A stretch of DNA of 64,000 nt from Acidimicrobiaceae bacterium. GTDB lineage: Bacteria; Actinomycetota; Acidimicrobiia; Acidimicrobiales; RAAP-2. Below are positions 11,451 to 29,718 of the stretch, piece by piece (positions within the stretch are counted from its first letter, which is position 1; every line of letters starts with the position of its first letter). The stretch spans positions 12,462 to 76,461 of the forward strand of contig CANGPS010000007.1 of NCBI GenBank assembly GCA_947456245.1. The letters are read 5' to 3'. The translations under genes and the position numbers were made by a program. The notes under the pieces were generated by a model, which worked only from the letters and a program-made list of their open reading frames with translations, did no database searches and had not been told where the DNA came from.

Positions 11451-11567
11451 TCCGCTGGCGCGCACCATCTCCCGCACGGGCCGCGGCCGACCTCGCCGAG
11501 TCGCGGCGAGCCGTGAGCGACCGTGGGCGTGCCAGCTCGCGATCTGGCGGTGCGCGAGGCTCTCTCC

Positions 11568-13055
11568 ATGCAGCGCACGGTGATCAGAGTCCATCCAGGC
11601 ATGACCATCGGTCCCGTCGATCCGAGGATCTTCGGAGGGTTCCTCGAGCACATGGGGAGAGCGGTCTACGGAGGGATCTTCGAGCCGGACAGCCCCCTCG
11701 CCGACGCCTTCGGCTGCAGGACCGACGTGCTCTCACACCTTGAGCAGCTCGACATGAGCGTCATGCGCTACCCCGGAGGGAACTTCGTCTCTGGGTACCA
11801 CTGGCGCGACGGTGTCGGACCCGTCGAGCAGCGGCCGACGGTCCGGGAGCTGGCGTGGAACAGCCTGGAGCCCAACACCTTTGGGACCGACGAGTTCCTC
11901 AGCCTCTGCGAGCGGATGGCCTGGACGCCGATGATGGCCGTCAACCTCGGCACCGGGACTCCCGAGGAGGCTCGCGAGTGGGTCGAGTACTGCAACGCCC
12001 CCATCGGCACCACCTCGTCAGACCTTCGGGCGTCCCATGGGCGCACGGATCCTTACCGCGTCGGGCTGTGGTGCCTCGGCAACGAGATGGACGGACCCTG
12101 GCAGCTTGGCCACGTCCCCGCCGAGGAGTACGCCGCACGCGCCAAGGCGGCAGCGCAGCTGATGCGAGAGGTCGATCCCGCGATCTCGACCGTGGTCTGT
12201 GGCTCGTCGACGCCGGACCTTGCCTCGTACCTCGAGTGGGACCGCGTCGTGCTCGAGCAGCTCGGCGAGGATGCGGACTTTCTCAGCGTCCATCGCTATG
12301 TGAACAACCTCGGCGGCGACACGCCGGAGTTCCTCGCCTCGGGTCGACAGATCGATCGGCAGATCGAGGAGGCTGATGCCGTCTGTCGCTTCGTCCAGGG
12401 TCGGACCAGAAGCCGGAAGCGGCCCTACCTCTGCTTCGACGAATGGAACGTCTGGTATAAGGACTTCGAGATGGACGGTCATGGCGCTGTCGCCCCCCAC
12501 CTCATCGAGGAGGTCTACAACCTCGAGGACGCACTCGTGGTCGCCGGCTTCCTCAACAGCTTCATCCGTCGTGCCGACGTCGTGAGGATCGCCAACCTGG
12601 CTCAGATCGTCAACGTCATCGCCCCCCTCCTGACCCGAGGTGACGACCTGCTGGTCCAGTCGATCTTCCACCCGTTCCAGATGATGTCGGCACGCCGGCG
12701 AGGGTCCTCCCTTCGGGTCGTCGTCGACGGGCCCACCTACTCGACCCGCGAGTCAGGGGAGGTTCCGTTCCTCGACGTCAGCGCGATCGTCGACGATGGC
12801 CTGCTGCACCTGTTCATCGTGAATCGATCGACCGATCATCCGGCACCCTTGGAGATCGACGTGGCTGCCATCTCCGCGCTCACCTTCGTTGACGCCGAGC
12901 TCCTGACCGGACCAGGGGCGAAGGCTGTCAACGACTTCGGCGCCCCACCGGTGGTCTCCCCTCATGCCTTCGATGACGTCACCTCATCGGGCGCGATCGC
13001 CCGCACCGAACTCCCCCCGTTGTCCTTCCTCGCGGCGTCGTTCACGATGGCCTGA
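11568..13055 (+). CDS. abfA: alpha-N-arabinofuranosidase, GH51
   Basis: Trimmed to MQRTVIRVHPGMTIGPVDPRIFGGFLEHMGRAVYGGI... RYPGGNFVSGYHW and the catalytic-region motif WCLGNEMDGPWQ are GH51 hallmarks. Confidence 0.85.
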   Translation: MQRTVIRVHPGMTIGPVDPRIFGGFLEHMGRAVYGGIFEPDSPLADAFGCRTDVLSHLEQLDMSVMRYPGGNFVSGYHWRDGVGPVEQRPTVRELAWNSLEPNTFGTDEFLSLCERMAWTPMMAVNLGTGTPEEAREWVEYCNAPIGTTSSDLRASHGRTDPYRVGLWCLGNEMDGPWQLGHVPAEEYAARAKAAAQLMREVDPAISTVVCGSSTPDLASYLEWDRVVLEQLGEDADFLSVHRYVNNLGGDTPEFLASGRQIDRQIEEADAVCRFVQGRTRSRKRPYLCFDEWNVWYKDFEMDGHGAVAPHLIEEVYNLEDALVVAGFLNSFIRRADVVRIANLAQIVNVIAPLLTRGDDLLVQSIFHPFQMMSARRRGSSLRVVVDGPTYSTRESGEVPFLDVSAIVDDGLLHLFIVNRSTDHPAPLEIDVAAISALTFVDAELLTGPGAKAVNDFGAPPVVSPHAFDDVTSSGAIARTELPPLSFLAASFTMA

Positions 13056-14457: not shown

Positions 14458-14625
14458 ACGCTGATGTCATCTGATCCCCCCTCACGTCATCACCATCCAA
14501 GACCCTGGGGCCCTCTTGCGATGCATCGGGTCAATCATTGCCGCTTGGCACCGGTCAGACCGCGTTGCGTGAAGGAAGAGCTGGTGCACCTTCAGCGGCC
14601 ACCAGCGAGGAGGGTTCGCCAACGA

Positions 14626-14679
14626 TCGGCCGTCGAGCATGCACCGGTAGACATTGGTATCCCGAATCAAAGCAGAAAC
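14626..14679 (-). repeat. cassette-boundary repeat copy 1 (distal, most decayed)
   Basis: tcggccgtcgagcatgcaccggtagacattggtatcccgaatcaaagcagaaac. Shares GGTAGACATTGGT and ...AGAAAC with the other copies. The position of the stop codon reads CGA instead of TGA on the minus strand. Confidence 0.55.
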
Positions 14680-14697
14680 GCCCTGGAGTTCGAGGGC

Positions 14698-14916
14698 CTA
14701 GAGGAGGTCCAGGAAGTCATCCACCGACAGACCTGCTTGGCGGATGATTGAGCGGAGGGTTCCTGAAGCCAGTTCCTTGTGCATCGGCACGATGACCGTC
14801 GATTCGGCTCGCCGCAGCTTCACGTGGCTTCCGCGCTGGCTGATCTCGGCAAAGCCAAGGCTCGCGAGTGCCTTGATGACGCGAGCGCCGCTAACGACCG
14901 GAAGCGGTGGACTCAC
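14698..14916 (-). CDS. hicA: HicA-family mRNA interferase toxin
   Basis: 72 aa. ...VIKALASLGFAEISQRGSHVKLRR...VPMHKELASGTLRSIIRQAGL, the HicA/YcfA signature. Overlaps the upstream antitoxin gene by 4 nt. Confidence 0.8.
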   Translation of the reverse strand: MSPPLPVVSGARVIKALASLGFAEISQRGSHVKLRRAESTVIVPMHKELASGTLRSIIRQAGLSVDDFLDLL

Positions 14917-15113
14917 GCAGAGAGCTGGAAGGTGGTGACGGTGGGATGGGCCAACTCGATCGGCGCTCCTTCGTCCTCGAAATAGAGACCAAGTGCCTCC
15001 TTGAGATTCTCAAGAGAATCCTCCGCTGAGAGACCCTGACTGGTCACCTCAACTTCGAGGCAACGCGCGACGAACAGGTCGCCCTCTTGCGTGATTGCTG
15101 CCGTGAACTCCAT
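14913..15113 (-). CDS. hicB: HicB-like antitoxin (UPF0150 fold)
   Basis: 66 aa. MEFTAAITQEGDLFVARCLEVEVTSQGLSAEDSLENLKEALGLYFED, the typical HicB N-terminal domain pattern. Here the antitoxin precedes the toxin. Confidence 0.7.
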   Translation of the reverse strand: MEFTAAITQEGDLFVARCLEVEVTSQGLSAEDSLENLKEALGLYFEDEGAPIELAHPTVTTFQLSA

Positions 15114-15184
15114 GGCTCAAGCATACGAGCATGGTGCGACAGGTCGCTGCGGGCCCGCGCGTGCATCAGCCCTGCGGACACGCT

Positions 15185-15240
15185 GGCTCGGCGTGGTCTC
15201 AACTCTCCACAGCGACTTGATCAATTTCGCTGGTTCGGCT
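15185..15240 (-). repeat. possible degenerate extra copy of the cassette-boundary repeat
   Basis: tcaactctcca at 15199-15209 is identical to the same part of copy 3 (16162-16172). The following cagcga...tcaatttcgctgg is only loosely similar to the repeat body. The GTAGACATTGG core is missing. Confidence 0.25.
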
Positions 15241-15311
15241 TACAGCAGAAGTGCATGCCGGCCCACAGTCCCCAAAGGCAGACGGAGGCTTGAAGGACCC
15301 AGCCCTACGAC

Positions 15312-15443
15312 ATGAGCAAGCCGGAGGCCGAAATTCAGACTCCTCGCTTCATTTCATGGCTGGTAGCCGAGACCTTCCGATGGGTCCTCTCCGGAGCGCT
15401 CATCGCGATCGTGGTCCTGCTGCTGAGTGATGCTGCCCTGTGA
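15312..15443 (+). CDS. small hydrophobic protein (43 aa), hypothetical
   Basis: Hand translation: MSKPEAEIQTPRFISWLVAETFRWVLSGALIAIVVLLLSDAAL-stop. One clear TM helix, no convincing RBS. Below the track's size cut-off. Confidence 0.25.
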   Translation: MSKPEAEIQTPRFISWLVAETFRWVLSGALIAIVVLLLSDAAL

Positions 15444-15615
15444 TTCACGCTGACGATCCCAGTCGCGGCACTGCTCTTCGTGGCCATCTGGGTGTCGGCC
15501 TTGACGGGCATCTTGCGAGCTCGAACGGCGTTTGGCCCTCCTCGAAGGCGCAAGTAGGCAGCATCTTCCACGGCTCGGTTGAATCCGGACAGCGGCGCCC
15601 GAGTGTGGGCGGCAG

Positions 15616-15683
15616 CTCAGATTCGCAGGTCATCCCTCCAACGAAATCCTGTACACATTGATATCTCGACTCAAAGTAGAAAC
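15616..15683 (-). repeat. cassette-boundary repeat copy 2
   Basis: ctcagattcgcaggTCAtccctccaacgaaatcctgtacacattgatatctcgactcaaagtagaaac. The minus strand reads VSTLSRDINVYRISLEG-stop. Confidence 0.8.
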
Positions 15684-15714
15684 GGACTCGGTCCGTTCTG
15701 GCTACTTCGGGGCG

Positions 15715-15933
15715 TCAGGAGGCCACCTTGACAGTCGTCACGATCGAGGATGAAGGCAGGGGCACGACCTCGCCATTGAGGAGCATCCCTTCGATGTGGA
15801 ACTCGATCGCATCGCGTATGTTTGCTGTCACCTCTTCAAGGGAGACGCCGGTGGCGACACATCCGTCGAGGTCTGGCACCCAAGCGCCGAAGTTGTGATC
15901 CGATCTCTCGATGACCACCGTGTACTCGCTCAT
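15715..15933 (-). CDS. hicB: HicB-family antitoxin
   Basis: 72 aa. MSEYTVVIERSDHNFGAWVPDLDGCVATGVSLEEVTANIRDAIEFHIEGM, the canonical HicB N-domain. 4-nt overlap with hicA upstream. Confidence 0.85.
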   Translation of the reverse strand: MSEYTVVIERSDHNFGAWVPDLDGCVATGVSLEEVTANIRDAIEFHIEGMLLNGEVVPLPSSSIVTTVKVAS

Positions 15934-16127
15934 CGTGGCCTCCTCTCGAGTCCCGCCTGCTTTACGATGCTAGCGACGAGTGGACGCTGGAGGTCGTCGG
16001 ACAACTTTCCGGGGACGGTCACTGTCCCGCCCTTAGTCCGATGCCTGAACTGACGATGGCTTCCTCGCTGTCGGTCGAGGTACCAACCATCTGCCTCGAT
16101 CTCCTTGATCATCGTCCTGACCTTCAC
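15930..16127 (-). CDS. hicA: HicA-family toxin
   Basis: 65 aa. ...IKEIEADGWYLDRQRGSHRQFRH..KGGTVTVPGK...L..IVKQAGL, the HicA signature. Confidence 0.85.
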   Translation of the reverse strand: MKVRTMIKEIEADGWYLDRQRGSHRQFRHRTKGGTVTVPGKLSDDLQRPLVASIVKQAGLERRPR

Positions 16128-16147
16128 CGACCCACAACGGTCGGGGG

Positions 16148-16215
16148 CTCAGGTCAGCTGGTCAACTCTCCAACGAGAATCTGTAGACATTGGTCTCTCG
16201 CATGAAAATAGAAAC
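16148..16215 (-). repeat. cassette-boundary repeat copy 3
   Basis: ctcaggtcagctggTCAactctccaacgagaatctgtagacattggtctctcgcatgaaaatagaaac. The minus strand reads VSIFMRETNVYRFSLES-stop. Confidence 0.85.
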
Positions 16216-16272
16216 GGGAACACGAGTCTGATCACTCAAGCTCGTCGGGCAAAGCCGTCTGGGTCACGATGA

Positions 16273-16319
16273 ATCACAAGTTAGCTTGCTGCCGTCACAG
16301 TGACAAAATAACTTGTGAT
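16273..16319. promoter_or_regulatory. nested palindromes (probable operator) overlapping the start of the 16315 TA-like operon
   Basis: Perfect 11-bp inverted repeat ATCACAAGTTA (16273-16283) / TAACTTGTGAT (16309-16319). It encloses an inner palindrome GTCAC-A-GTGAC (16294-16304). The right arm covers the GTG start at 16315. Confidence 0.5.
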
Positions 16320-16551
16320 CGTGGATGATTCCCCACAGATCATCGAAAGCGCCCGGAGGTACGGAATTGTGGATACCGACATCATCCACTGCTTCGACAA
16401 CCCCATCCTCGTCGAGGACCTCGATGACGATCTCGTCATGCTGGTGGGGCCAGACCGAACTGGCCGCCTCTTGGAGGTCGGTGTCGTTGTCGGCAACGAC
16501 GGACCCGTCATCGTCCACGCCATGGAAGCTAGAACCAAGTACCTGAGGTGA
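16315..16551 (+). CDS. small toxin-like protein of a two-gene TA-like module (family not recognised with confidence)
   Basis: 78 aa, GTG start. ...ARRYGIVDTDIIHCFDNPILVED...GPDRTGRLLEVGVVVGNDGPVIVHAMEARTKYL resembles small actinobacterial toxin-like proteins. GTGA overlap with the next gene. Confidence 0.5.
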   Translation: MIVDDSPQIIESARRYGIVDTDIIHCFDNPILVEDLDDDLVMLVGPDRTGRLLEVGVVVGNDGPVIVHAMEARTKYLR

Positions 16552-16832
16552 ACACCATGCCAAGAAGCACGAAGCACATCATCGAGCAGGCCGACGAGTT
16601 GGCGAGGCGGTTCCAGGACCATGCTCCGGGCTCAAGCAACGTGAAGACTGCGGATTCGCTCCGTGAGGTGCGGCTTGCCTTTCTTCGTCGAGCAGAGGCG
16701 GAACAAGAACTTTTCGCCGCCGTCGATGGTGCCCGAGCTGACGGTCAGAGTTGGGCCGCTGTCGGGGCGATGCTCGGCACTTCTGGAGAGGCAGCTCGCC
16801 AGCGCTATGGCGCGCCCGCCGTCAAGAACTGA
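16548..16832 (+). CDS. antitoxin-like protein with C-terminal HTH
   Basis: 94 aa. The C-terminal QSWAAVGAMLGTSGEAARQRYG looks like a short HTH. Translationally coupled to 16315..16551. Its stop codon lies inside repeat copy 4. Confidence 0.5.
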   Translation: MNTMPRSTKHIIEQADELARRFQDHAPGSSNVKTADSLREVRLAFLRRAEAEQELFAAVDGARADGQSWAAVGAMLGTSGEAARQRYGAPAVKN

Positions 16833-16888
16833 GTTCAGCCTTCCAAAGAAAACCTATAGACATTGGTCTCTCGACTTGCGGTAGAAAC
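16821..16888 (-). repeat. cassette-boundary repeat copy 4
   Basis: gtcaagaactgagtTCAgccttccaaagaaaacctatagacattggtctctcgacttgcggtagaaac. The minus strand reads VSTASRETNVYRFSLEG-stop. Confidence 0.85.
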
Positions 16889-16910
16889 CGCCTTCTGCTG
16901 GATCGATGCC

Positions 16911-17207
16911 CTACGCGACAGCCAGCGGCGTGATGGCATCGAGCACGGGGCCGAGCTGATCCTTCTCGTTCTCAAGGTCATAGCGGGACTGCAGATTGAT
17001 CCAGAATCGCTCGCTCGTGCCGAAGTACTTGGCAAGTCGCAATGCGGTGTCCGCGGAGATCCCTCGCTTGCCATGGACGATCTCATTGATCCGGCGAGGC
17101 GGCACGGCGATCTCCACCGCCAGGCGGTGCTGTGTCACCCCGAGGGGCATGAGAAAGTCCTCCATAAGAACTTCGCCCGGATGGATGGGCGTCATCGTGG
17201 TCGTCAT
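16911..17207 (-). CDS. higA: HigA-family antitoxin (XRE HTH)
   Basis: 98 aa. IHPGEVLMEDFLMPLGVTQHRLAVEIAVPPRRINEIVHGKRGISADTALRLAKYFGTSERFWINLQ, a textbook HigA/VapI sequence. Confidence 0.85.
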   Translation of the reverse strand: MTTTMTPIHPGEVLMEDFLMPLGVTQHRLAVEIAVPPRRINEIVHGKRGISADTALRLAKYFGTSERFWINLQSRYDLENEKDQLGPVLDAITPLAVA

Positions 17208-17218
17208 CGAATGTCCTC

Positions 17219-17500
17219 TCAGTGGTAGTCAGTGATCTCGATCTCTTCGGGCCCAACCTTCGTCCAGCGAAAGCAGATCCTCCACTGGTCGTTGATTCTG
17301 ATGCTGTGCTGTCCCGCCCTGCCGCCGCTGAGCTTCTCCAACCGGTTCCCCGGCGGGACACGAAGGTCAGCCAGGCTCTCTGCCGCATCGAGGATCACGA
17401 GTTTGCGAAGTGCCACTCGTTGGAGGTCTCCATGGAGCTTCCGAACTCGCTCTCTGCGCCAGACCCGCTCAGTGTCCCGGTCCTTGAAGGTCTGCAGCAC
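17219..17500 (-). CDS. higB: HigB-type (RelE superfamily) plasmid-maintenance killer toxin
   Basis: 93 aa. ...LDAAESLADLRVPPGNRLEKLSGGRAGQHSIRINDQWRICFRW...EIEITDYH, the HigB signature. Lies upstream of higA, as expected for higBA. Confidence 0.85.
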   Translation of the reverse strand: MLQTFKDRDTERVWRRERVRKLHGDLQRVALRKLVILDAAESLADLRVPPGNRLEKLSGGRAGQHSIRINDQWRICFRWTKVGPEEIEITDYH

Positions 17501-17585
17501 TCACCAAACATAACGCCTCTCGTTATGAACGTCAAGCGTTATGTCGTTGTCACCAGAGGCGCCGGCGCTCGACCTCCACACCCTC

Positions 17586-17897
17586 TCACCCGAGGAGGTC
17601 ACGGACGTCCACGATCGAAGTGATGACCTCTCCGCGCCAGCCGACCTCTTCGTCGGGCCGCTCATGGTCCCGTTCCCAAGGATCCCTGAGAAGGATTGGA
17701 CGCATGCCGAGCGCGCGAGCGCCGCTCCACTCCTGGCTGCCTCGATCACCCACATAGACGCACGAGCTGGCATCGACCCCCAGCTCCTCCGTGACCGAGA
17801 GGTAGTTGCGCTCATGTGGCTTCCTCGTCCTGAGTACGCACGAGAACTGAATCGCACTGGGCAGGTCAGAGTCTCCATCAGACCCAGTGCGATTCAC
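17586..17897 (-). pseudogene. C-terminal fragment of a HAD-IA-type hydrolase
   Basis: ...FSCVLRTRKPHERNYLSVTEELGVDASSCVYVGDRGSQEWSGARALGMRPILL matches HAD motifs III-IV (K ... GD). The N-terminal DxD/T motifs are missing and an upstream stop bounds the frame. Confidence 0.5.
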
Positions 17898-17944
17898 GCA
17901 AATCGGTCCTGCAACGTGCAGTCGGACTAGTTCTCCAAGGAATC

Positions 17945-18088
17945 ATGTGGCTAGTGGTGGCGATCGCCCTCACTCTTCATGGTTCAACAGGTATGACTTG
18001 GACACTTGTCCCCGCTGCCGTGGCAGGGGTAGCGGGAGTCACGTTCCTCATTCGGTACTGGCAACTCAGACCGAAGAATCAATCCTGA
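17945..18088 (+). CDS. small membrane protein (47 aa), hypothetical
   Basis: Hand translation: MWLVVAIALTLHGSTGMTWTLVPAAVAGVAGVTFLIRYWQLRPKNQS-stop. Two hydrophobic stretches. AAGGA lies 5 nt upstream of the ATG. Below the track's size cut-off. Confidence 0.3.
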   Translation: MWLVVAIALTLHGSTGMTWTLVPAAVAGVAGVTFLIRYWQLRPKNQS

Positions 18089-18142
18089 GGGCATTCTGCA
18101 TCCAACCTGTCCCAGTCTGAAGCGATCTGCAGCGGCGAGGAA

Positions 18143-18210
18143 CTTAGGTCAGTTGATCAACCTTCCAGCGAAATTCGGTAGACATTGGTCTCTCGCATCA
18201 AGGTAGAAAC
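18143..18210 (-). repeat. cassette-boundary repeat copy 5
   Basis: cttaggtcagttgaTCAaccttccagcgaaattcggtagacattggtctctcgcatcaaggtagaaac. The minus strand reads VSTLMRETNVYRISLEG-stop. Confidence 0.85.
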
Positions 18211-18276
18211 GAGGGAGGCACCGCAGCAGGGTCCAGCCCAGGAAGGGGGACTACCGATCAGAGCCCACGAGGCCGC

Positions 18277-18822
18277 TCAGGAGAGGTGGTCTTCGCAGAG
18301 ATCCATCAGTGCCATCAGCGCCCCTTGCTCCCCATGGGACCATGCGTCGTAGGAAATCGAGAAGACCAACGCCGCCCTGCCGACGGCGACTCGTGCCTCG
18401 AGCGGATCAGCTCCATGTTCCTCAAGAACGTCCACCAGCGAAGCGCACCACCGCTCTTGCTTCACGAGTTGCCGCCCTCGAAGCCGTGCGTTCTGCTCCA
18501 GGACTTCGACTCGGAGCTGGTGCTCGCTGCGATCGGCCTCGAACCCTGCCGCGAGCGCCCGAACTCCAGCAATCACTGCAGCCCGAGGTTGCATGCGATC
18601 GAGCGCATCAGTGACGGCGTCTACGAGGAACTCCTCCATCGCTGCATCGCCGGAGAACAGCACTTCCTCCTTGTCGGTGAAGTGCCGAAAGAACGTTCGT
18701 GCCGTCACACCCGCCTTCGCCGCGATCTGCTCCACAGTCGTCGCATCGAATCCCTGGGATGCGAAGAGCTCAAGGGCAGCTTCACTCAACCGAGCGCTCG
18801 TGCCTTCTGCCCATCTCGACAT
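18277..18822 (-). CDS. TetR/AcrR family transcriptional regulator
   Basis: 181 aa. The N-terminal HTH LSEAALELFASQGFDATTVEQIAAKAGVTARTFFRHF is typical TetR. Confidence 0.85.
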   Translation of the reverse strand: MSRWAEGTSARLSEAALELFASQGFDATTVEQIAAKAGVTARTFFRHFTDKEEVLFSGDAAMEEFLVDAVTDALDRMQPRAAVIAGVRALAAGFEADRSEHQLRVEVLEQNARLRGRQLVKQERWCASLVDVLEEHGADPLEARVAVGRAALVFSISYDAWSHGEQGALMALMDLCEDHLS

Positions 18823-18842
18823 CGCCTCATCGTATGACTTGC

Positions 18843-18855
18843 GTCACGAAGTGAC
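18843..18855. promoter_or_regulatory. palindrome GTCAC-GAA-GTGAC in the tetR/SDR divergent intergenic region (candidate operator)
   Basis: Perfect 5-3-5 dyad between tetR (start 18822, minus) and the SDR gene (start 18874, plus). Confidence 0.4.
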
Positions 18856-18873
18856 ATCACGCATGATTGATTG

Positions 18874-19812
18874 ATGACAGATCGTGACATCACTGAAGCT
18901 TCCACCGTCGTCGTGACGGGACCGACCCGAGGACTCGGTCTCGAGACCACTCGAGCGCTCGTCCAGCTCGCCACCGGATTGGACGTCCTCCTGGTAGGCC
19001 GACTCTCGCAGGCCATGGAGCAGATCAGCTCTGAGATAGCGATCGCTCAGTCAAGACCGCACATCATCGCCTGCGACTTTGCTGATCTGGATTCGGTCAG
19101 ATCTGCCTCGACTGAGATCGCCGGCCTCATCGACTCAGGGGCCGTCGCGCCGATCTCGTCGATTGTAGCGAACGCCGGGCTTCAGACGATCGATCGGAAT
19201 CACGTGACAAAACAGGGTTACGAACTGACCTTCGGGGTCAATGTGCTCGCCCAGCAGGTGTTGATCAATGAGCTGCTCGACCACTTCGAGCTCGACGCAC
19301 GAATCATCCTCGTGGGGAGCGGCACTCACCGCGACGATCGCAAGAAGGGTGCAGTGGCGTTGCCTCGTTGGGAAGGACCGGCATCACTGTGTCAGCCCGG
19401 AGTCGGAGATGACGCTGGCGAGTCGGCCGCAGGCCAGCGCGCCTACGCAACCTCGAAGCTTTGCGTGAACTACCTCGTTCACGAACTCGACCGCCGCCAT
19501 GGCGACAAGGTCGTTGCGTTGGTTCATGACCCAGGGATGATGCCGGGAACCGGCCTTGCCCGTGACATGTCTGCCGCCAAGCGCCTTGCCTGGGAGAAGG
19601 TGATGCCTCGGCTCAATATGCCGGGGTCAAGCACGCCACAGCGTTCCGGTCGAGTCCTGGCAGAGATGGCACTCGGGCTGAAGTTCGCCGACGCACGGGG
19701 CGGCTACGTCAATATCGACGTACTCGGCGATCCGTCCCCCCAGTCGTTCAATCCCGAGCGAGAGGCGCAGCTCTGGGAAGCCTGTAGCGAGATGGCTCGG
19801 TCGGCTTCCTGA
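18874..19812 (+). CDS. SDR family oxidoreductase
   Basis: ATG at 18874 (the track starts at TTG 18871). VVVTGPTRGLGLET glycine motif; YATSK catalytic Y-x3-K; about 312 aa. Confidence 0.8.
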   Translation: MTDRDITEASTVVVTGPTRGLGLETTRALVQLATGLDVLLVGRLSQAMEQISSEIAIAQSRPHIIACDFADLDSVRSASTEIAGLIDSGAVAPISSIVANAGLQTIDRNHVTKQGYELTFGVNVLAQQVLINELLDHFELDARIILVGSGTHRDDRKKGAVALPRWEGPASLCQPGVGDDAGESAAGQRAYATSKLCVNYLVHELDRRHGDKVVALVHDPGMMPGTGLARDMSAAKRLAWEKVMPRLNMPGSSTPQRSGRVLAEMALGLKFADARGGYVNIDVLGDPSPQSFNPEREAQLWEACSEMARSAS

Positions 19813-19895
19813 CACACGAGCCGAAGGCGGCTACGGCGAAGCGATCAATCGTTGCAGCCCAAGGCGAATCTCACGTCGTGGAGCTCGCACCTCCG

Positions 19896-19963
19896 TGAAC
19901 GCGCGAGGCTCAACCCTCCAAAGAAGACCTATCAACATTGGGTTCTCTTCTTGCGGGAGAAAC
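19896..19963 (-). repeat. cassette-boundary repeat copy 6 (diverged)
   Basis: tgaacgcgcgaggcTCAaccctccaaagaagacctatcaacattgggttctcttcttgcgggagaaac. Same length and register as the others. The minus strand reads VSPARREPNVDRSSLEG-stop. Confidence 0.7.
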
Positions 19964-20014
19964 GACTTCGTCTCAGATTGAAGATCTAGCTCTTCAGGCG
20001 CCGACGAGCGATAG

Positions 20015-20470
20015 CGTCCTCGCAAGGAAATCCGTCAGTTCGTCATCGGTGATTCTGCCGCCGCTGTCGAGCTCTGGAGTTCCACAGGCCTTCTCTGGCC
20101 CAGCAATGACCCCGTTCGCGACATCGAACGAAAGCTCGAAGACTCACCGTGGGGCTTCCTCGTCATGGTCGAGGACGACGACATCATCGGTTCGATCATG
20201 GTCGGCTACGACGGCCATCGGGGGTGGGTGAACTACCTCGCCTGCCACACGCTCCACCGTCGAAGGGGCGTCGCCACGTCACTCATGACAGAGGCAAGCA
20301 AGATCCTCGCGGCTCGCGGCTGCCCGAAGATCAACCTTCAGGTTCGCGCTGGCAACGACGCTGCCGTGAAGTTCTACGAGAGCATCGGCTACGTGGCGGA
20401 AGAAGTCAGCTCGTTGGGCCTTCGACTCGTGGACGACCAGTTCGGGCAGCAAGAGGTCACGAGTCCGTGA
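20015..20470 (+). pseudogene. YpeA-like GNAT acetyltransferase lacking a canonical start codon
   Basis: The frame is open from 20015, directly after TAG at 20012-20014. It reads RPRKEIRQFVIGDSAAAVELWSSTGLLWPSNDPVRDIERKLEDSPWGFLVMVEDDDIIGSIMVGYDGHRGWVNYLA...ARGCPKINLQV...FYESIGY and is collinear with E. coli YpeA from its Met1. The position aligned to Met1 is AAG (20024). There is no ATG, GTG, TTG or CTG in frame before 20165, which is the track's start. Confidence 0.5.
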
Positions 20471-20530
20471 ACGCCTACCTCGAGCCCCATAACAGGTGCA
20501 GGGGTCTTCCGTGCGGAGCAATCACCAGCC

Positions 20531-20746
20531 TCACGACGCCACCTGGATCGTCTTCACGATGGGCATCGGCTCTGGAAGCTGATCCCCGTGAAGTCGCATT
20601 CCCTCAAGGTGGAACGGGATCGCCTCACGCATGTTCTCGATCACCTCGTCGACCGTCTTGCCGGTCGTGATGACCCCATCGAGCCCGATCACGTAGGCGG
20701 CGAAGGTCGTCCCCGCATCTTCGATCACGATCGTGTACTCGGTCAC
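20531..20746 (-). CDS. hicB: HicB-family antitoxin
   Basis: 71 aa. MTEYTIVIEDAGTTFAAYVIGLDGVITTGKTVDEVIENMREAIPFHLEGM. Clear paralog of 15715..15933. Confidence 0.85.
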   Translation of the reverse strand: MTEYTIVIEDAGTTFAAYVIGLDGVITTGKTVDEVIENMREAIPFHLEGMRLHGDQLPEPMPIVKTIQVAS

Positions 20747-20949
20747 TGGCCTCTCCTCGTCAAGCCGGCCTGCCTCATGATGCTAGCGAGGGTTCCCTTC
20801 GGCACCTCGTCGGAAAGGTGGCCGGGCACGGTGACGCAGCCTGGCTTCGCCGGATGGTGGAACTGCCGATGGCTCCCCCGTTGTCGTGACAGGTACCATC
20901 CATCGCCTTCGATGACCTTGATCAGCTCACGAACCCTCACCGACCACAA
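20743..20949 (-). CDS. hicA: HicA-family toxin
   Basis: 68 aa. ...LIKVIEGDGWYLSRQRGSHRQFHHPAKPGCVTVPGHLSDEVPKGTLASIMRQAGL. Paralog of 15930..16127, and the similarity continues into the 5' flank. Confidence 0.85.
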   Translation of the reverse strand: MWSVRVRELIKVIEGDGWYLSRQRGSHRQFHHPAKPGCVTVPGHLSDEVPKGTLASIMRQAGLTRRGQ

Positions 20950-20959
20950 CGGTCGAGCG

Positions 20960-21012
20960 TTCAGGACAGTTGGTCAGCCTTCCAATGAAAATCTGTAGAC
21001 ATTGGTCTCTCG
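20960..21012 (-). repeat. cassette-boundary repeat copy 7 (proximal; forms the last 12 codons + stop of the GNAT gene)
   Basis: ttcaggacagttggTCAgccttccaatgaaaatctgtagacattggtctctcg is the rc of ...CGA GAG ACC AAT GTC TAC AGA TTT TCA TTG GAA GGC TGA. The AGAAAC-side arm of the other copies is replaced by GNAT coding sequence (..RCGFEQ). Confidence 0.8.
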
Positions 21013-21414
21013 CTGCTCAAACCCACAGCGGACATAGAGCCGGTTGGCCCCCTCTCGCTTCGGGTTCGACGTGAGATCAACGGTCCGCGAGTTCGCCTTT
21101 CGAGCGAGGGCGATCGCCGCCTCGACGAGCGCTTCGCCTACGCCCTGACCACGGGCCTCGACGTCCACGACCACATCCTCGATCCACCCCCGGGCCCCCG
21201 AGGGTGATCGGAACAGCACGAGCGTGAGCGTTCCCACGATCCCCGCACCCGTGCGTGCGACGAAGAGCGTCGTATCCGGAGCGGCGACGATCGACTCGAG
21301 GTCATAGGCCTCCACGGGCGGAGCACTCTGCGAGAGCTGCGGGATGAGCCTGCGGAGCGCCTCGGTCACCTCGGGACCCACGACGGTCACCTCTTCGATC
21401 CAGACCTCGCTCAT
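20974..21414 (-). CDS. GNAT family N-acetyltransferase
   Basis: Start taken at ATG 21414 (MSEVWIEEV...), which forms an ATGA overlap with the NUDIX stop. GNAT motif A region IEDVVVDVEARGQGVGEALV; C-terminus ...NRLYVRCGFEQRETNVYRFSLEG. Confidence 0.85.
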   Translation of the reverse strand: MSEVWIEEVTVVGPEVTEALRRLIPQLSQSAPPVEAYDLESIVAAPDTTLFVARTGAGIVGTLTLVLFRSPSGARGWIEDVVVDVEARGQGVGEALVEAAIALARKANSRTVDLTSNPKREGANRLYVRCGFEQRETNVYRFSLEG

Positions 21415-22100
21415 GCACCCGCCTCCTCGCCGCGCCACACCGGGGCTCGGACCTGGTCGTAGTGCACGTCGTTGATCTCGCCTCGAAGCGCTGCGAAGAC
21501 GGGGTCTCCCCAGCGCTCCAGTCCGACGAGCGGCGAGGGCAGGTTGTCTCGGGTGAACCAGCCAAGGTCCGACACCTCGAGGGGGTGCGGGTTCAGCTCG
21601 CCCCCCACCGCTCGGCAGTGGAAGAGCAGGGAGTAGATCGGGATGCGCGACATGCCGAGGCGCAGTCCGTCGAGGACGGCGATCAGACGGACGGTCTCGA
21701 CCTCGATCCCGGTCTCCTCCTCCACCTCCTTCTCGACCACCTCCGAGGCTGAGTAGCCCACGTCACACCAACCGGTCGGGTAGAGCCACACCCCGGAATC
21801 GGCGCGCTGGATCAGGAGGAGCTCGCCCTTGTCGTTCTCGACTGCGGCGCCGACCGCCACCTTCGGCGTCTGGTAGCCGGGCACGCCCTTGCCCACCTGG
21901 GACATCCACTCGACCACGTGGCCCTCGGCATCGTCGAGCTGCTCGGGATCCTGCTCGGTGGCGACCTTGATGTCGGCGGCGATCTTCAGGATCTCCTCGA
22001 AGCGCTCCTTCTCGTACAGGCTCTCGGTGAACCCGAGGCCGGTCTTGGCGACGGCCGCGAGGGTCTCAGACCACCGCCGGAGGACTCTCTCAGGGATCAT
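21411..22100 (-). CDS. NUDIX hydrolase with N-terminal Nudix_N-type helical domain
   Basis: Trimmed to MIPERVLRRWSETLAAVAKTGLGFTESLYEKERFEEILKIA... Nudix box GWCDVGYSASEVVEKEVEEETGIEV. An alternative start at 22160 would leave only 9 bp to the divergent gene. Confidence 0.75.
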   Translation of the reverse strand: MIPERVLRRWSETLAAVAKTGLGFTESLYEKERFEEILKIAADIKVATEQDPEQLDDAEGHVVEWMSQVGKGVPGYQTPKVAVGAAVENDKGELLLIQRADSGVWLYPTGWCDVGYSASEVVEKEVEEETGIEVETVRLIAVLDGLRLGMSRIPIYSLLFHCRAVGGELNPHPLEVSDLGWFTRDNLPSPLVGLERWGDPVFAALRGEINDVHYDQVRAPVWRGEEAGA

Positions 22101-22169
22101 GCGCTCCACGTCCCGCACGCTACCAACCTCCAGCGTCCTCGGCGCCCCGCTGCGCGGCATGATGGTGGC

Positions 22170-22337
22170 ATGGCTGTGAACGAAGACTGCCGGCACTACG
22201 TCCGGCGCCAGGCGTCGGGCGACGATGTCACCGAGCGATGCAAGCTCGACGCGAACGAACCGCTCCCCTTCACCTGTCCGGAGGGATGCCTCTTCTACGA
22301 GCCCCGCGGCATCAACCAGTCCGGCTGGCAGGTCTGA
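22170..22337 (+). CDS. small Cys-rich conserved hypothetical protein (55 aa)
   Basis: MAVNEDCRHYVRRQASGDDVTERCKLDANEPLPFTCPEGCLFYEPRG. Four Cys residues. Resembles a small protein I recall as widespread in actinobacteria. C-terminal part of track ORF 21918..22337. Confidence 0.5.
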   Translation: MAVNEDCRHYVRRQASGDDVTERCKLDANEPLPFTCPEGCLFYEPRGINQSGWQV

Positions 22338-22380
22338 CCTCTCTGGCACGACGCCGACGATCCTGAAGTAAGTTCTGGGC

Positions 22381-23007
22381 ATGTCAGCCGACAGCGACGA
22401 CGTAGCCCAGGCGAGCAGGGCCGCCGACAAGGACGTCCGCTCCCAGATCGTCGAGGCCGCCTTCTCTGTGCTCCAGGAGGTCGGACCGACCCGACTGCGC
22501 ATCCAGGAGGTCGCCCGGCGAGCCGGCGTATCGCCCACGCTCCTCTACTACTACTTCGACGGCAAGCACGCCCTCATCGCCGCCGCCTACGCCCGGGACT
22601 ACGCCCTCATCCTCGAGCGCGACCTCGAGCTCACCAGGGCCGTGTTCGCGGCATCGAGCACTCCGTCAGAGCTCTTCCACTCGACGCTCAAGACCTATGG
22701 CCTGACCTTCAACGACCGAGACATCCGTCGACGACGGCTCGACGCGCTCTCCGCCGCGCAGCACGACCCGATCGTCGCCGCGGCAATCGCTCCGCTGCAG
22801 AAGGCCTACACCGACGAGCTGCGCGCCCAGGTCACGGCCATCCGAGACGAGGGCTGGCTCCCGGAGACCATCGACATCGAGGCATTCCTGATGGTGATGA
22901 TGGCCCTGCCCTTCGGCCAGGTCTTCAGCGACCTCGACGAGTCATTCGAGGTCGACGTGCTCAGCGCGCTCGCCCTTCTGGTCCCTCGGGCGCCGTCGGA
23001 AGGCTGA
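22381..23007 (+). CDS. TetR/AcrR family transcriptional regulator
   Basis: 208 aa. HTH IVEAAFSVLQEVGPTRLRIQEVARRAGVSPTLLYYYF. Confidence 0.85.
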   Translation: MSADSDDVAQASRAADKDVRSQIVEAAFSVLQEVGPTRLRIQEVARRAGVSPTLLYYYFDGKHALIAAAYARDYALILERDLELTRAVFAASSTPSELFHSTLKTYGLTFNDRDIRRRRLDALSAAQHDPIVAAAIAPLQKAYTDELRAQVTAIRDEGWLPETIDIEAFLMVMMALPFGQVFSDLDESFEVDVLSALALLVPRAPSEG

Positions 23008-23010
23008 GGC

Positions 23011-23259
23011 TCAGCTCTCGAGCACGTCACCGAGGAGGTCGACGCCGATCCCCTCGCTGCGCAACCAGGCCACGGCAGCGTCGATGCGATCGGCGTGGCC
23101 GTCGAGCTCACACACGATCCAGCCGACCGAGTCGGTAATGTCCGCCCTGCGGATGTCCGGGTCGATGTCGAACTCGCGGACGAGGTGCGCCAAGACCGGA
23201 CGGCGCACCAGTGCCTCGGGGAACGTCAGCTTGACTCGGACTCGGACCTCGGCGCTCAC
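23011..23259 (-). CDS. NIL (ferredoxin-like) domain protein
   Basis: GTG start at 23259. VSAEVRVRVKLTFPEALVRRPVLAHLVREFDIDPDIRRADI...GWIVCELDG, the NIL-domain pattern. 82 aa. Confidence 0.6.
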   Translation of the reverse strand: MSAEVRVRVKLTFPEALVRRPVLAHLVREFDIDPDIRRADITDSVGWIVCELDGHADRIDAAVAWLRSEGIGVDLLGDVLES

Positions 23260-23269
23260 GACGACGACG

Positions 23270-24061
23270 CTAGCCCAGGACCCGGTTGAGGCGCCCGGAG
23301 GCCAGGCCCTCGAGGTCCAGCGCGCAGAACGCGAACCCGGCCGACCGACAGGCGGACACGATCTCGGCGCGTCGGGCAACCGCCATCTCCAGCTCGTCCT
23401 CTGGCACCTCCACCAGGGCGACCTCGCCGTGGTGTCGGACCCGCAGATCGGTGAACCCGATCGCCCGGAGGGCCGCCTCGGCACGCTCGACGGACCGGAG
23501 CCGGGTCATCGTGACCGGCGTGCCGTAGGGAAGGCGCGAGGCCAGACAGGGCGATGACGGCTTGTCGGCGGTGGGGAGCTCGAGCAGGGCGGACTCTGAC
23601 CGGATGGTCGCCTTGTCCATGGCCAGATCGACCAGCGGGAACCTCGCGCCGCGCTCGGCCGCCGCCTCCTGGCCGGGACGATGGTCGCCGAGGTCGTCCA
23701 CGTTGACCCCGAGGACCACGGTCGCTCCGCGCTCGAGGGCGAGGGGGCCGAGCGCGTCCATCAGGTGGGTCTTGCACCAGGCGCAACGGTCAGGACCGTT
23801 CGCCACGTAGCGCGGATCCGCCAGCTCGTCGGTGGACACGACCAGGTGGTTCAGCCCATGTCGCACGGCGAGCTCCCGGGCCGCTGCCTCCTCTGTGTCG
23901 GCCAGCGAGGCCGAGCTCGCAGTGACGCACAGCGCGTCGTCGCCGAGCGCCTCGGTGGCGGCGACGGCAAGGTAGGTCGAGTCCACCCCGCCGGAGAAGG
24001 CGACCACCACCGGGCCGATCTGGCGGAGGTGCTCGACGAGCCGCTCCGTGGTCGGCGTCAC
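23270..24061 (-). CDS. PP-loop ATP-utilising enzyme, LarE-like (TIGR00268-type) sulfur transferase family
   Basis: 263 aa. PP-loop VAFSGGVDSTYL; conserved ...KPSSPCLASRLPYG Cys region as in LarE. Confidence 0.65.
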   Translation of the reverse strand: MTPTTERLVEHLRQIGPVVVAFSGGVDSTYLAVAATEALGDDALCVTASSASLADTEEAAARELAVRHGLNHLVVSTDELADPRYVANGPDRCAWCKTHLMDALGPLALERGATVVLGVNVDDLGDHRPGQEAAAERGARFPLVDLAMDKATIRSESALLELPTADKPSSPCLASRLPYGTPVTMTRLRSVERAEAALRAIGFTDLRVRHHGEVALVEVPEDELEMAVARRAEIVSACRSAGFAFCALDLEGLASGRLNRVLG

Positions 24062-24747
24062 CGGGTGATGGAGCCGAGCACCTCGTCGATCGACCCGACC
24101 ATGCCCGTGTAGAAGGGTCCGAACTCCGCGTAGAGCGTCGAGGCCTCGTCGAAGCGCATCGTGTAGACGCAGTCCTTGACGTCATCAGGGTGCACCCCGA
24201 ACAGGGTGACGCCCCACTCCCAGTCGTCGAGGCCGGTCGAGCCGGTCACGACCTGCAGGATCCGCCCATGGAACTCCCGGCCGGACTTGCCGTGCGCCAT
24301 CATCAGCTCGCGACGGTCGTCATAGGGCAGCGCGTACCAGTTGTTGGCCTCGCCCCGCCGCTTCGACATCGGGTAGAAGCAGAAGGACCGCATGTCCTCC
24401 GGAGGGAGCTTGGGGTGCAGGCGCGCCTCCAAGATGTGCTCGGGCGTGCTCGTGGCGTACTCCGACACCTCGGTCAGCGACACATAGGACTCGACCACCT
24501 CGAGGCCGGCGGCCTCGAGGCCGGTCTGGAGGCGGCGCAGCGCCCAGAGGTCCTCGGCGGTGGCCATGACGCAGGCGTCGGCCTTGTGGCCGACGATGGC
24601 CGCCAGCACCACCTGGCAGCCTTCGTCCTTCGCCGAGGCCACGGCCGCCTCGACGGCCGACCGGTCGGTCCCGGGGCGGGCCTTGACGAAGAGGTGGATG
24701 ACGTTCCACCCCACCGAGGGGGACAGGGGCTCAGGCGTGTTCTCCAC
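24058..24747 (-). CDS. chdC: coproheme decarboxylase / hydrogen-peroxide-dependent heme synthase (chlorite dismutase family)
   Basis: 229 aa. ...FCFYPMSKRR...NWYALPYDDRRELMMAHGKSGREF...ILQVVTGSTGLDDWEWGVTLF, typical of actinobacterial HemQ/ChdC. Confidence 0.8.
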   Translation of the reverse strand: MENTPEPLSPSVGWNVIHLFVKARPGTDRSAVEAAVASAKDEGCQVVLAAIVGHKADACVMATAEDLWALRRLQTGLEAAGLEVVESYVSLTEVSEYATSTPEHILEARLHPKLPPEDMRSFCFYPMSKRRGEANNWYALPYDDRRELMMAHGKSGREFHGRILQVVTGSTGLDDWEWGVTLFGVHPDDVKDCVYTMRFDEASTLYAEFGPFYTGMVGSIDEVLGSITR

Positions 24748-24806
24748 GGGTCCATGCTACGCCCGGAGGCGCCGGGGCCTGCCCGCGCCGAGCTCAGGCC
24801 CCGGTC

Positions 24807-24829
24807 GGTGGCGGGGTCGACCCGCCACC
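24807..24829 (-). terminator. GC-rich hairpin downstream of the trpB-like gene
   Basis: GGTGGCGGG-gtcga-CCCGCCACC, a perfect 9-bp stem. No U-tract, which is common in high-GC actinobacteria. Confidence 0.4.
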
Positions 24830-24855
24830 GATCAGGACCGAGCGATCGGCGGCGA

Positions 24856-26235
24856 TCAGCCGGCGGGGACCGACGGGAGGGTCGAGAGGCCCTCGGCGAG
24901 GCGGGCCTCGTCGAACTGCTCGTCGACCATGCGCCCCGCGATGTAGGCGTCGTAGGCGGCGAGGTCGAAGTGGCCGTGACCGCACAGGGCCGTCAGGATC
25001 ACCGTCTCCTCGCCGGTCTCCTTGGCCCGGAGCGCCTCCTGGATGGTGGCGGCGAGGGCGTGGGTCGGCTCAGGCGCCGGGACGATGCCCTCGGTGCGGG
25101 CGAACTGCAGGCCGGCGGCGAAGCACTCGGACTGCGGGACGCTGATGGCCTCCATGAGGCCGAGCTCGTAGACATGGCTGATCAGCGGGGACATCCCGTG
25201 GTAGCGCAGGCCACCGGCGTGGATCGGGTCCGGGACGAAGTCGTGGCCGAGGGTGTGCATCTTCATCAGCGGCGTCATCCCGGCAGAGTCACCGAAGTCG
25301 TAGGCGTAGGTGCCGCGGGTCAGCGACGGGCACGAGGCCGGCTCGACGGCGCGGATGATCGGCGACATGTTGCCGGCGAGCTTCTCGCGCAGGAACGGGA
25401 AGGCGAGGCCGGCGAAGTTCGAGCCACCGCCGGTGCAGCCGACGATGACGTCCGGAGCAGCCTCCCCGGCCTTGGCCAGCTGCAGGATCGCCTCCTCGCC
25501 GATGATCGTCTGGTGCATCAGGACGTGGTTGAGGACGCTGCCGAGGGCGTAGCGGACCTCCGGGTCCGGAGCGGCGACCTCGACGGCCTCGGAGATGGCG
25601 ATGCCGAGGGAGCCTGGGTGGTTCGCGTCCTGGGCGAGGTAGGCGCGGCCGGCCTCGGTGAGCTCAGAGGGCGAGCGGTGGACGATGCCGCCGAATGCCT
25701 CGATCATGAGGCGGCGGTAGGGCTTCTGGTCGTAGCTCGCACCCACCTGCCAGACCTCGCACTCGAGGTCGAACAGGGCGCAGGCGAAGGCGAGAGCGGT
25801 GCCCCACTGGCCGGCACCGGTCTCGGTGGTGAGCTTCTTCACCCCGGCAAGCTTGTTGTAGTACGCCTGCGGGACCGCCGTGTTGGGCTTGTGGCTCCCG
25901 GCCGGGCTCACGCCCTCGTACTTGTAGTAGATGTGCGCCGGGGTCCCGAGCGCCGCCTCGAGGCGGTGAGCCCGGAACAGTGGCGATGGCCTCCACTGGC
26001 GGTACACGTCGAGGACGGCGCCGGGGATGTCGATGTAGCGCTCTTGGGAGACCTCCTGGAGGATGAGGTCCATCGGGAACAGCGGGGCGAAGTCCTCGGG
26101 GCCCGCCGGCTCGAGCGTGCCGGGGTGCAGCGCCGGCGGCGGCGGCTCGGGCAGGTCCGGCACGATGTTGTACCAGGCGGTCGGCATCTCCGACTCGTCG
26201 AGCAGGATCTTGTGCTGGCGGACGGTCTCGTCCAT
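24856..26235 (-). CDS. TrpB-like PLP-dependent enzyme (tryptophan synthase beta, type 2)
   Basis: Trimmed to [34 protein letters not shown]..., the characteristic TrpB2 N-terminus. PLP lysine region GSHKPNTA. No other trp genes nearby. Confidence 0.8.
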
Positions 26236-26328
26236 GGTGTGGCCTCCCGTTGGGTCGCGTGGCCACAAGATACCCAAGCCGTCCGCCGACCGCACCTCGC
26301 TCCTCGATCCCCATCGACGCCGGGGCGC

Positions 26329-26358
26329 GAGACAGGCGGCCCGCAGGCCGCCCGTCTC
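26329..26358 (-). terminator. long GC hairpin downstream of groEL
   Basis: GAGACAGGCGGCC-cgca-GGCCGCCCGTCTC, a 13-bp stem with one mismatch, 23 nt past the groEL stop. Confidence 0.5.
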
Positions 26359-26380
26359 AACGCACTGAGGCAGGGACCGA

Positions 26381-28048
<1,668 letters not shown>

Positions 28049-28075
28049 TTAGCACTCTGGACGAGGGAGTGCTAG
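28049..28075 (-). promoter_or_regulatory. CIRCE element (HrcA operator)
   Basis: TTAGCACTC-tggacgagg-GAGTGCTAG, i.e. 9-N9-9 with one mismatch to the TTAGCACTC-N9-GAGTGCTAA consensus, 49 nt upstream of the groEL start. Confidence 0.85.
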
Positions 28076-28119
28076 CAGACGGACCTCAGGACTGCCAATG
28101 GCGTGTCCGGCCGACAGCC

Positions 28120-29707: not shown

Positions 29708-29718
29708 TGCAACTCCTT

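Follow-up and report, generated by a model that had tools for sequence, protein, structure and literature searches.

A probable array of small mobile cassettes at the 3′ end of a GNAT acetyltransferase gene in freshwater Actinomycetota

The repeat array behind the GNAT gene

The 64,000-nucleotide stretch of an Acidimicrobiaceae genome analysed here (contig CANGPS010000007.1, hereafter the window, whose positions serve as coordinates) carries a gene for a GNAT acetyltransferase on the minus strand, followed by a series of gene-sized units separated by copies of a short repeat. Seven copies of this repeat, each of about 55 nt and all in a single orientation, delimit six units of 0.5–1.8 kb with cargo genes in both orientations (Table 1). 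The array spans positions 14626–21028, its first site overlapping the 3′ end of the GNAT gene; the GC content, about 70% for the window, falls to about 60% over 14.6–21.0 kb. On the minus strand the repeat consensus reads CGTTTCTAC-N7-CGAGAKACCAATGTCTAC-AGGTTTTCGTTGGARGGNTGA, and each site can be described as a left box, GTTTCTAC, followed by seven variable bases, a core, CGAGAKACC-AA-YGTNTAY, and a tail, MGN-TTY-TCN-TTG-GAR-GGN-TGA. Of these parts, the GNAT end shares the core and the tail but not the left box, in place of which site c7 has real GNAT coding sequence. A scan of the window with the 15-nt core GAGACCAATGTCTAC gave seven matches at no more than three mismatches, against 0.69 expected; six of them are repeat copies, the match at 17225–17239 lies in no copy, and site c6 misses the threshold. 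In what follows, labels of the K0 to K28 type denote cassette families and L-numbers denote loci on related contigs.

Table 1. Sites and cassettes of the array, listed from the GNAT gene to the distal end
Feature	Position	Strand	Content or basis
GNAT acetyltransferase gene (attachment target)	20974..21414	-	146 aa; Pfam Acetyltransf_1, 5e-16
Last six GNAT codons and stop, cassette-derived	20974-20994	-	Junction comparison
Site c7, GNAT-proximal junction, attL-like	20974..21028	-	True GNAT 3′ end; host left half joined to cassette tail AGA TTT TCA TTG GAA GGC TGA; crossover AA at 21002-21003
Cassette K10	19940..21001	-	HicA 20743-20949 (-), HicB 20531-20746 (-), GNAT-like open reading frame (ORF) 20165-20470 (+); Pfam
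Site c6	19910..19964	-	Degenerate core GAGAACCCAATGTTGAT; tail RSSLEG-stop
Cassette K26	18187..19937	.	TetR regulator 18277-18822 (-), short-chain dehydrogenase 18871-19812 (+); Pfam
Site c5	18157..18211	-	Tail CGA ATT TCG CTG GAA GGT TGA (RISLEG-stop)
Cassette K27	16865..18184	-	HigA 16911-17207, HigB 17219-17500, truncated HAD hydrolase 17586-17897; Pfam, blastn
Site c4	16835..16889	-	Tail AGG TTT TCT TTG GAA GGC TGA
Cassette K0	16192..16862	+	DUF4258 protein 16315-16551, partner ORF 16548-16832
Site c3	16162..16216	-	Tail AGA TTC TCG TTG GAG AGT TGA (RFSLES-stop)
Cassette K28	15660..16189	-	HicB 15715-15933, HicA 15930-16127; Pfam
Site c2	15630..15684	-	Tail AGG ATT TCG TTG GAG GGA TGA
Cassette K12	14656..15657	-	HicA 14698-14916, HicB-like ORF 14913-15113
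Site c1, array-distal junction, attR-like	14626..14680	-	Cassette left arm and core; decayed tail CGG TGC ATG CTC GAC GGC CGA, belonging to no cassette; stop lost (TGA to CGA)

Insertion into the GNAT gene and position of the exchange

An empty and an occupied site could be compared in two sister lineages whose GNAT proteins are about 96% identical (P0056 versus P0031). At the empty site (L048–L050) a LysE gene lies 50 bp past the GNAT gene, whose product ends RFSLHG-stop, while at the occupied site (L043–L047) a 1,462-bp unit encoding ParE/Phd and two small ORFs sits between GNAT and LysE. There the GNAT protein ends RFSLEG-stop and the distal site reads RLSLHG-stop. In a three-way alignment the empty site reads ...ACGACG AATGTCTATCG GTTTTCGCTTCACGGCTGA-flank, the GNAT side of the occupied site ...ACGACG AATGTCTATCG ATTTTCGTTGGAGGGCTGA-cassette, and its distal side cassette-GGTTTCTACCGTAAAGAGAGACC AATGTCTATCG GCTTTCGCTTCACGGCTGA-flank. 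This places the exchange within AATGTCTATCG. The last six codons and the stop of the GNAT gene, starting at the third base of the Arg codon, are replaced by the cassette, so that after insertion GNAT ends with the cassette tail and its former tail stands at the far end of the insert. A reading of the window made earlier from the sequence alone (the sequence-only reading) had proposed that each cassette brings its own replacement 3′ end for the GNAT gene, and this comparison bears it out.

The exchange point was mapped further on sites that share one neighbouring cassette and differ in the other. The joint that fuses K12 to GNAT in L016, where K12 leads the array, carries a right half identical to that of site c2, where K12 lies behind K28: the two are the same from CAATGTG rightward and differ leftward, through the second base of the Thr/Ile codon. 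Conversely, the K12–K8 joint and the joint between K12 and the chromosomal flank are identical leftward through ACCAA, save one base of the left box, and begin to diverge at the third base of the Asn codon; the K9–K20 joint behaves in the same way when compared with the joint between K9 and another cassette. In the empty/occupied alignment the third base of the Thr codon (ACG versus ACC) tracks the left partner. Taken together, the joint polymorphisms and the empty/occupied alignment therefore confine the exchange to the AA of ACC-AA-Y. Dyad symmetry of the site reaches its maximum at the same AA (0.437, with no more than 0.335 at any of 13 other centres; p = 0.0013 on shuffling of columns), with inner arms AGACC/TGTCT and outer boxes GTTTCTAC and TTGGAAGG, the latter reading CCTTCCAA on the other strand. 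Serine recombinases exchange strands over 2 bp at the dyad centre of their sites, while the strand exchanges of tyrosine recombinases lie 6–8 bp apart. Because the exchange maps to 2 bp at a dyad centre, a serine-type enzyme is favoured, and the recombinase is probably of this type, with a 2-bp exchange at the central AA. One pair of sites, at 2844–2898 in L024 and 6291–6345 in L016, is otherwise identical and differs in a 5-base block exactly at the crossover (ACCAATG versus AGGCGGG), which could point to inactivation of the site, a scar left by recombination or an error in the assembly.

The exchanged peptide has counterparts in GNAT proteins with and without an array. Almost all of the best 120 GNAT homologs (62–96% identity) end in ...TNVYR[FIL]SL[EDH][GSA]. 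The array-free GNATs of L053–L055 end RFSLEG-stop with no cassette site downstream, and a distant array-free ortholog from a 73%-GC genome (L062) ends RLDLTS-stop, written in host-typical GC-rich codons. The single-sequence AlphaFold model of the protein was poor (pLDDT 43), and the model used was based on an alignment of 59 orthologs (pLDDT 90.9). In this model the last beta-strand consists of residues 139–143 (VYRFS), and the replaced residues are predicted to complete this last strand of the fold. The GC content at third codon positions is lower in the last 12 GNAT codons than in the rest of the gene (0.50 versus 0.81 in the window, 0.33 versus 0.82 in L051). This drop is confined to high-GC hosts and is not shown by low-GC lineages; it is compatible with a tail of foreign origin, with a constraint on the DNA, or with the two together. 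In high-GC hosts (the window, L051, L007 and L033) the GNAT tails use AGA, TTT, TCA, TTG and AAT, which are rare at 70% GC.

Codon-level constraint on the cassette tails

Sites were gathered from genome and metagenome collections with a pattern for the left box and the core that fixed only one base of the tail, and all loci were then scored with a matrix derived solely from left box and core, the tail not being used in the selection. This yielded 37 distinct cassette-type sites. They belong to the window and to about 25 contigs from Actinomycetota metagenome-assembled genomes and metagenomes of fresh water or bog lakes. The tail is present at every true site and, as a negative control, absent from 14/14 distinct chance matches, which stand on unrelated, mostly AT-rich contigs. 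Every true copy is in an array, and wherever the contig reaches that far the array begins at the 3′ end of the GNAT gene.

The formal codon test was made on the 35 distinct sites that retain a stop. Mean entropy is 0.44, 0.26 and 0.93 at codon positions 1, 2 and 3, that of position 1 coming mostly from Arg (A/C) and Leu (T/C), where both changes are synonymous; permutation of the column entropies gave approximate p-values of 1.2e-4 over 13 codons and 0.007 over the seven tail codons. The ratio of non-synonymous to synonymous polymorphism (pN/pS) is 0.17 in the GNAT frame versus 1.15 (+1) and 1.35 (+2) for the identical bases, and for the tail only it is 0.21 versus 1.06 and 1.27 in the other frames. 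Among the possible single-base variants of the tail consensus, 12/13 of the synonymous ones were observed and 18/50 of the non-synonymous ones (Fisher p = 2.8e-4). Arg is encoded by AGA, AGG, CGA or CGG, Leu by TTG, CTG, CTC, CTA or TTA, and Ser by TCG, TCT, TCA or TCC; the stop is TGA at 33 sites and TAG at two. These patterns indicate that the cassette tails are under purifying selection for the peptide R-F/I-S-L-E-G-stop, presumably because whichever cassette comes first has to supply the end of a functional GNAT. The stretch also carries a DNA-level constraint: the third base of the Thr codon is fixed in cassettes (ACC at 33/35 sites), and the rare codons TTG, TTT, AAT and AGR predominate in high-GC hosts. 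With signs at both the DNA and the peptide level, it is dual-coded, as recombination site and as peptide.

Cassette-borne and array-distal tails fare differently. The comparison was limited to clearly distal cases, the automatic first/internal/terminal classifier having mislabelled a few sites. The stop is present in 35/35 cassette-borne tails and missing from two of the five clearly distal ones. The degraded distal tails read RCMLDGR in the window (stop lost), RFSLERR in L020/L025 (stop lost) and RCSAER-stop in L057. After a recent single insertion the distal tail is still matched to its lineage (RLSLHG-stop versus RFSLHG-stop), and in the divergent locus L002 the GNAT ends RFIWDD-stop and the distal site reads RFSWND-stop, both of that lineage's own type. 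The distal tail would decay because it represents the ancestral GNAT end after its displacement: no cassette includes it, and it is never re-exposed to selection.

Most of what the sequence-only reading had said about the repeat agrees with these results. Its six quoted codon strings are exact on the minus strand, and the stop is indeed kept in six of the seven copies, the exception being c1, which lay outside the range it covered. The codon-periodic, mostly synonymous divergence that it saw in the window persists across the 35 sites, and its expectation that GNAT orthologs, including array-free ones, share the C-terminal peptide is matched by almost all of them, the distant L062 ending RLDLTS-stop. 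None of the three observations that it had named as refuting its idea was made. Two of its claims hold in part. It had the peptide preserved rather than the nucleotides: the synonymous excess supports the former, but the DNA is also constrained, in its dyad symmetry, its invariant ACCAA and its rare AT-rich codons. It had also said that every copy can still encode the GNAT C-terminus, which is true of the maintained cassette tails but not of the array-distal copy, which is in no cassette and decays.

Single sites of the window show further peculiarities. At c6 the core GAGAACCCAATGTTGAT carries Thr-to-Pro and Tyr-to-Asp changes, with the left box, the AA and the stop kept, and c6 may be a weakened site locking two units together. 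An 83-aa ORF at 16835–17086 (minus strand) ends in ...SRETNVYRFSLEG-stop only through running into site c4. This artefact of a tail that resembles coding sequence is open to mis-annotation as a gene. A 62-aa ORF at 14482–14670 (minus strand) begins within c1 (MIRDTNVYRCMLDGRS...), continues into the chromosomal flank through the lost stop, and is probably meaningless.

Cassette pool, origin of the array and relation to known systems

When the arrays were cut at their sites and the pieces clustered, 29 cassette families were obtained in 68 instances, with an order that differs between hosts. Starting from GNAT, the order is K10 K26 K27 K0 K28 K12 in the window; K2 K0 K3 K7 K13 K4 K5 K6 in L007, L033, L020, L025 and L001, which are overlapping pieces of one array; K2 K0 K3 K10 K16 K17 in L035/L042; K2 K14 K0 in L022; K12 K8 K9 K20 K21 in L016; and K0 alone in L030. 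Thus K0 is fourth in the window and occupies positions 1–3 in other hosts, K12 is last in the window and first in L016 (96.9% identical), and a counterpart of K10, 90% identical, stands at array position 4 in L035/L042. K0 and K12 are 95–98.5% identical between hosts whose NUDIX and GNAT DNA is 74–83% identical, and the GC content of cassettes is 0.57–0.62 for host values of 0.54–0.70. On these comparisons the cassettes appear to constitute a shared pool, moving between hosts and between array positions. The units measure 0.4–2 kb, with up to eight per array, and their cargo is mostly toxin-antitoxin pairs: HicAB, HigBA, RelE/Phd, ParE/Phd, DUF4258 pairs and, by sequence resemblance, a MazF-like pair. 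Translation resemblance points to methyltransferases, PNPOx-like and luciferase-like enzymes, a HAD hydrolase and GNATs among the rest. K27 is composite, with a HigBA part that matches half of K4 at 97% identity and a remainder that is 88% identical to K22 (blastn). The HAD-hydrolase ORF of K27 (17586–17897, minus strand) is a 103-aa fragment, while the complete 242-aa gene seems to be present in K22 of L039, the 88% identity of which extends over 992 nt. Cassettes are thus mosaic and able to decay or fuse.

Contigs often end just after the GNAT gene, as expected for a hypervariable, repeat-bounded region. In the closest relatives, L051/L052 (96% GNAT identity), the contig ends about 0.9 kb past GNAT, after a single 439-bp cassette. 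Arrays thus seem to break metagenome assemblies, and their true length and diversity are probably underestimated.

We consider it likely that the six small units of the window are mobile cassettes forming an integron-like array, and that conservative site-specific recombination placed them in the 3′ end of the conserved chromosomal GNAT gene. The comparisons above establish the insertion itself, where its junction falls, the replacement of the tail, the sharing and reordering of cassettes among hosts and the selection on the peptide. In the mechanism that we propose, the exchange would occur at the AA inside the Asn codon of ...TNVYR..., and the incoming cassette would replace everything downstream, that is, the last residues of the final beta-strand of GNAT and the stop. 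The bases of the tail would double as the right half of the recombination site, and the host gene would stay whole whichever cassette adjoins it, while the displaced ancestral tail would end up at the far end of the array, outside any cassette, and then decay. The recombinase would act in trans, given that no gene for one was found close to any of the arrays.

Several points weigh against this reading or temper it. No recombinase was found by Pfam within 10 kb of GNAT in the loci with gene calls, none of the 29 cassette families has a recombinase ORF, and a Pfam scan of the window ORFs over about 1–23 kb and 32–45 kb returned no recombinase; the 20 window ORFs outside the array covered by Pfam are metabolic or housekeeping genes, including those for RadA, ClpC, LysS, NadB/C and IspD. 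A phmmer search of 2,747 ORFs from the window and all loci gave no match to Xer, IntI1, resolvase or Hin seeds, a weak screen that had no positive control. The assignment to the serine type draws on five informative joints and on the symmetry of the site, and the mobility of the cassettes is read from comparative data. The copies are phylogenetically related, hence the approximate nature of the p-values given above, while the number of copies has no bearing on the contrast between frames or on the tally of variant types. Finally, the TTGGA of the tail may be partly held by DNA-level symmetry, in which case its conservation would not be wholly peptide-driven.

Other origins of the array have to be weighed against a set of cassettes that is mobile and under selection today. 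The tails might be fossils, acquired once from the GNAT of some host, their synonymous differences then being ortholog divergence without continuing selection. This would explain why the variants found in cassette tails (F/I/L, E/D/H, G/S/A) match those among GNAT orthologs, and amino-acid changes per tail are 0.84 for internal against 0.65 for GNAT-attached copies. We nevertheless judge it unlikely, given that precise exchange at the AA leaves the host tail at the distal end, never to be picked up by a cassette, that stops are lost from some distal tails and from no cassette-borne one, and that the K0 family has several tail variants, all with frame and stop intact. The array could also be debris of full-size integrative elements that accreted in tandem and lost their integrase, in the manner of cis-mobilizable elements (CIMEs), with cassettes that are immobile today. 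Integration at a 3′ end with a replacement end, followed by tandem accretion, is well known for integrative and conjugative or mobilizable elements (ICEs and IMEs; PMC5704250) and from the ssrA islands of Dehalococcoides (PMC3146451), and some cassettes are mosaic or hold truncated genes. But the units are of 0.4–2 kb with intact gene pairs and no integrase remnants, the left box GTTTCTAC is strictly conserved at each unit boundary, and the same units occur reordered and nearly identical in hosts that are themselves much more divergent, which makes this origin quite improbable.

A classical integron array without integrase (CALIN), or a set of Xer/dif-type modules, would share the array architecture, the toxin-antitoxin-rich cargo and the lack of an adjacent integrase seen in CALINs (PMC4889954) or pdif modules. 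When four sites were folded as single-stranded DNA on both strands, however, three gave no stable hairpin (z −0.74 to +0.97); c2 alone scored lower (z −2.73 and −1.37), and no fold is common to the sites, which are conserved in sequence and not in structure, have no match in Rfam and border genes in both orientations. The dif site is a 28-bp site with XerC and XerD arms around a 6-bp spacer, the XerD arm being of the TTATGT type. Inspection of the consensus found no XerD-arm motif, and the crossover maps to 2 bp and not to such a spacer. The integron reading was rejected for want of a shared hairpin, of IntI and of an Rfam match, and the Xer/dif reading on site anatomy, so that together we regard them as very improbable. 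As for a purely DNA- or RNA-level element with a coincidental codon pattern, the DNA constraints described above are real, but pN/pS lies far below 1 in the GNAT frame alone and exceeds 1 in both others, first-position swaps (AGR/CGR, TTG/CTG) and the TGA/TAG swap are synonymous, and tail replacement is demonstrated by the empty-site comparison; we consider this explanation refuted. Scans of viral contigs with the site pattern, bearing on a phage or viral origin, gave one AT-rich chance match only.

GNAT sits in a conserved block (GroEL, PALP, HemQ-like, LarE-like, NIL, NUDIX, GNAT) across all lineages; in the window the NUDIX ORF (stop at 21411) overlaps the GNAT start (region 21411–21438), and the run NUDIX, TetR, NIL, LarE-like, HemQ-like, PALP, GroEL, ThiS, PALP (21411–33989) is syntenic in all related loci, of 54%–73% GC. 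Behind the array-free GNAT of L053–L055 lies an arsenic-resistance-like cluster at 10808–12805 (ArsR-type HTH_5, glyoxalase, MIP channel, low-molecular-weight phosphatase) with no recognisable cassette sites, and the position 3′ of GNAT may be a general accessory-gene hotspot.

To our knowledge, integrons are the sole well-understood platform for cassette arrays, and they are rare or absent in Actinobacteria. The GNAT arrays resemble them in being ordered arrays of small, mostly integrase-less cassettes on one chromosomal platform, reordered between hosts, with toxin-antitoxin-rich cargo of a composition foreign to the host and with discrete units that appear to move independently (29 families in differing orders). 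They differ in that no IntI stands beside the GNAT platform, the neighbours in the window and related loci being NUDIX, TetR, NIL, LarE-like, HemQ and GroEL. Their sites are conserved in sequence and do not form attC hairpins; the platform site is part of a host gene, within its coding 3′ end, each cassette needing a coding tail; the genes face both ways, the crossover falls at the AA of a dyad centre, and the hosts are Actinomycetota. With elements that integrate at gene 3′ ends, such as e14 and phage 21 at icd, ICESt1/3 at fda or SXT at prfC, the arrays share an attachment site in the 3′ end, a replacement end that preserves the protein and possible tandem accretion. The icd ends of e14 and phage 21 reportedly differ mostly synonymously. 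Unlike the GNAT cassettes, which are 0.4–2 kb long, recombinase-less, at most eight per array and drawn from a shared pool, those elements measure tens of kb and carry their own integrase. CIMEs at fda and the ssrA islands of Dehalococcoides also comprise integrase-less units between repeated attachment sites, stacked at one gene end (PMC5704250, PMC3146451), but they either result from decay or form large islands whose arrays include recombinase genes, and neither a common pool of very small cassettes nor upkeep of the repeat at the codon level is evident in them. The attachment sites of serine recombinases (hix of Hin/Gin, attP/attB of large serine integrases) likewise form an imperfect dyad around a non-palindromic central dinucleotide, with the site of the mobile partner longer and differently spaced than the chromosomal one; here the resemblance is one of site geometry only.

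Full-text searching of the literature did not bring up a description of this cassette system. With less assurance than for the array itself, we lean towards an undescribed gene-capture platform of freshwater Actinomycetota, analogous to but independent of integrons, in which an unlinked, possibly serine, recombinase would insert recombinase-less micro-cassettes into a dual-coded GNAT 3′ end. Such a platform would be a second route to a cassette array, with the same outcome as integrons through a different type of site. It would also show, in a clean natural case, one DNA site serving a recombinase and encoding a peptide at once, with a built-in control, as cassette-borne tails are kept and the stranded distal tail decays. 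It would explain the assembly breaks right after GNAT in abundant freshwater lineages and mark a hotspot of toxin-antitoxin and accessory genes, and its compact attachment site, with a crossover mapped to 2 bp, could give rise to a new tool for recombination when its enzyme has been identified.

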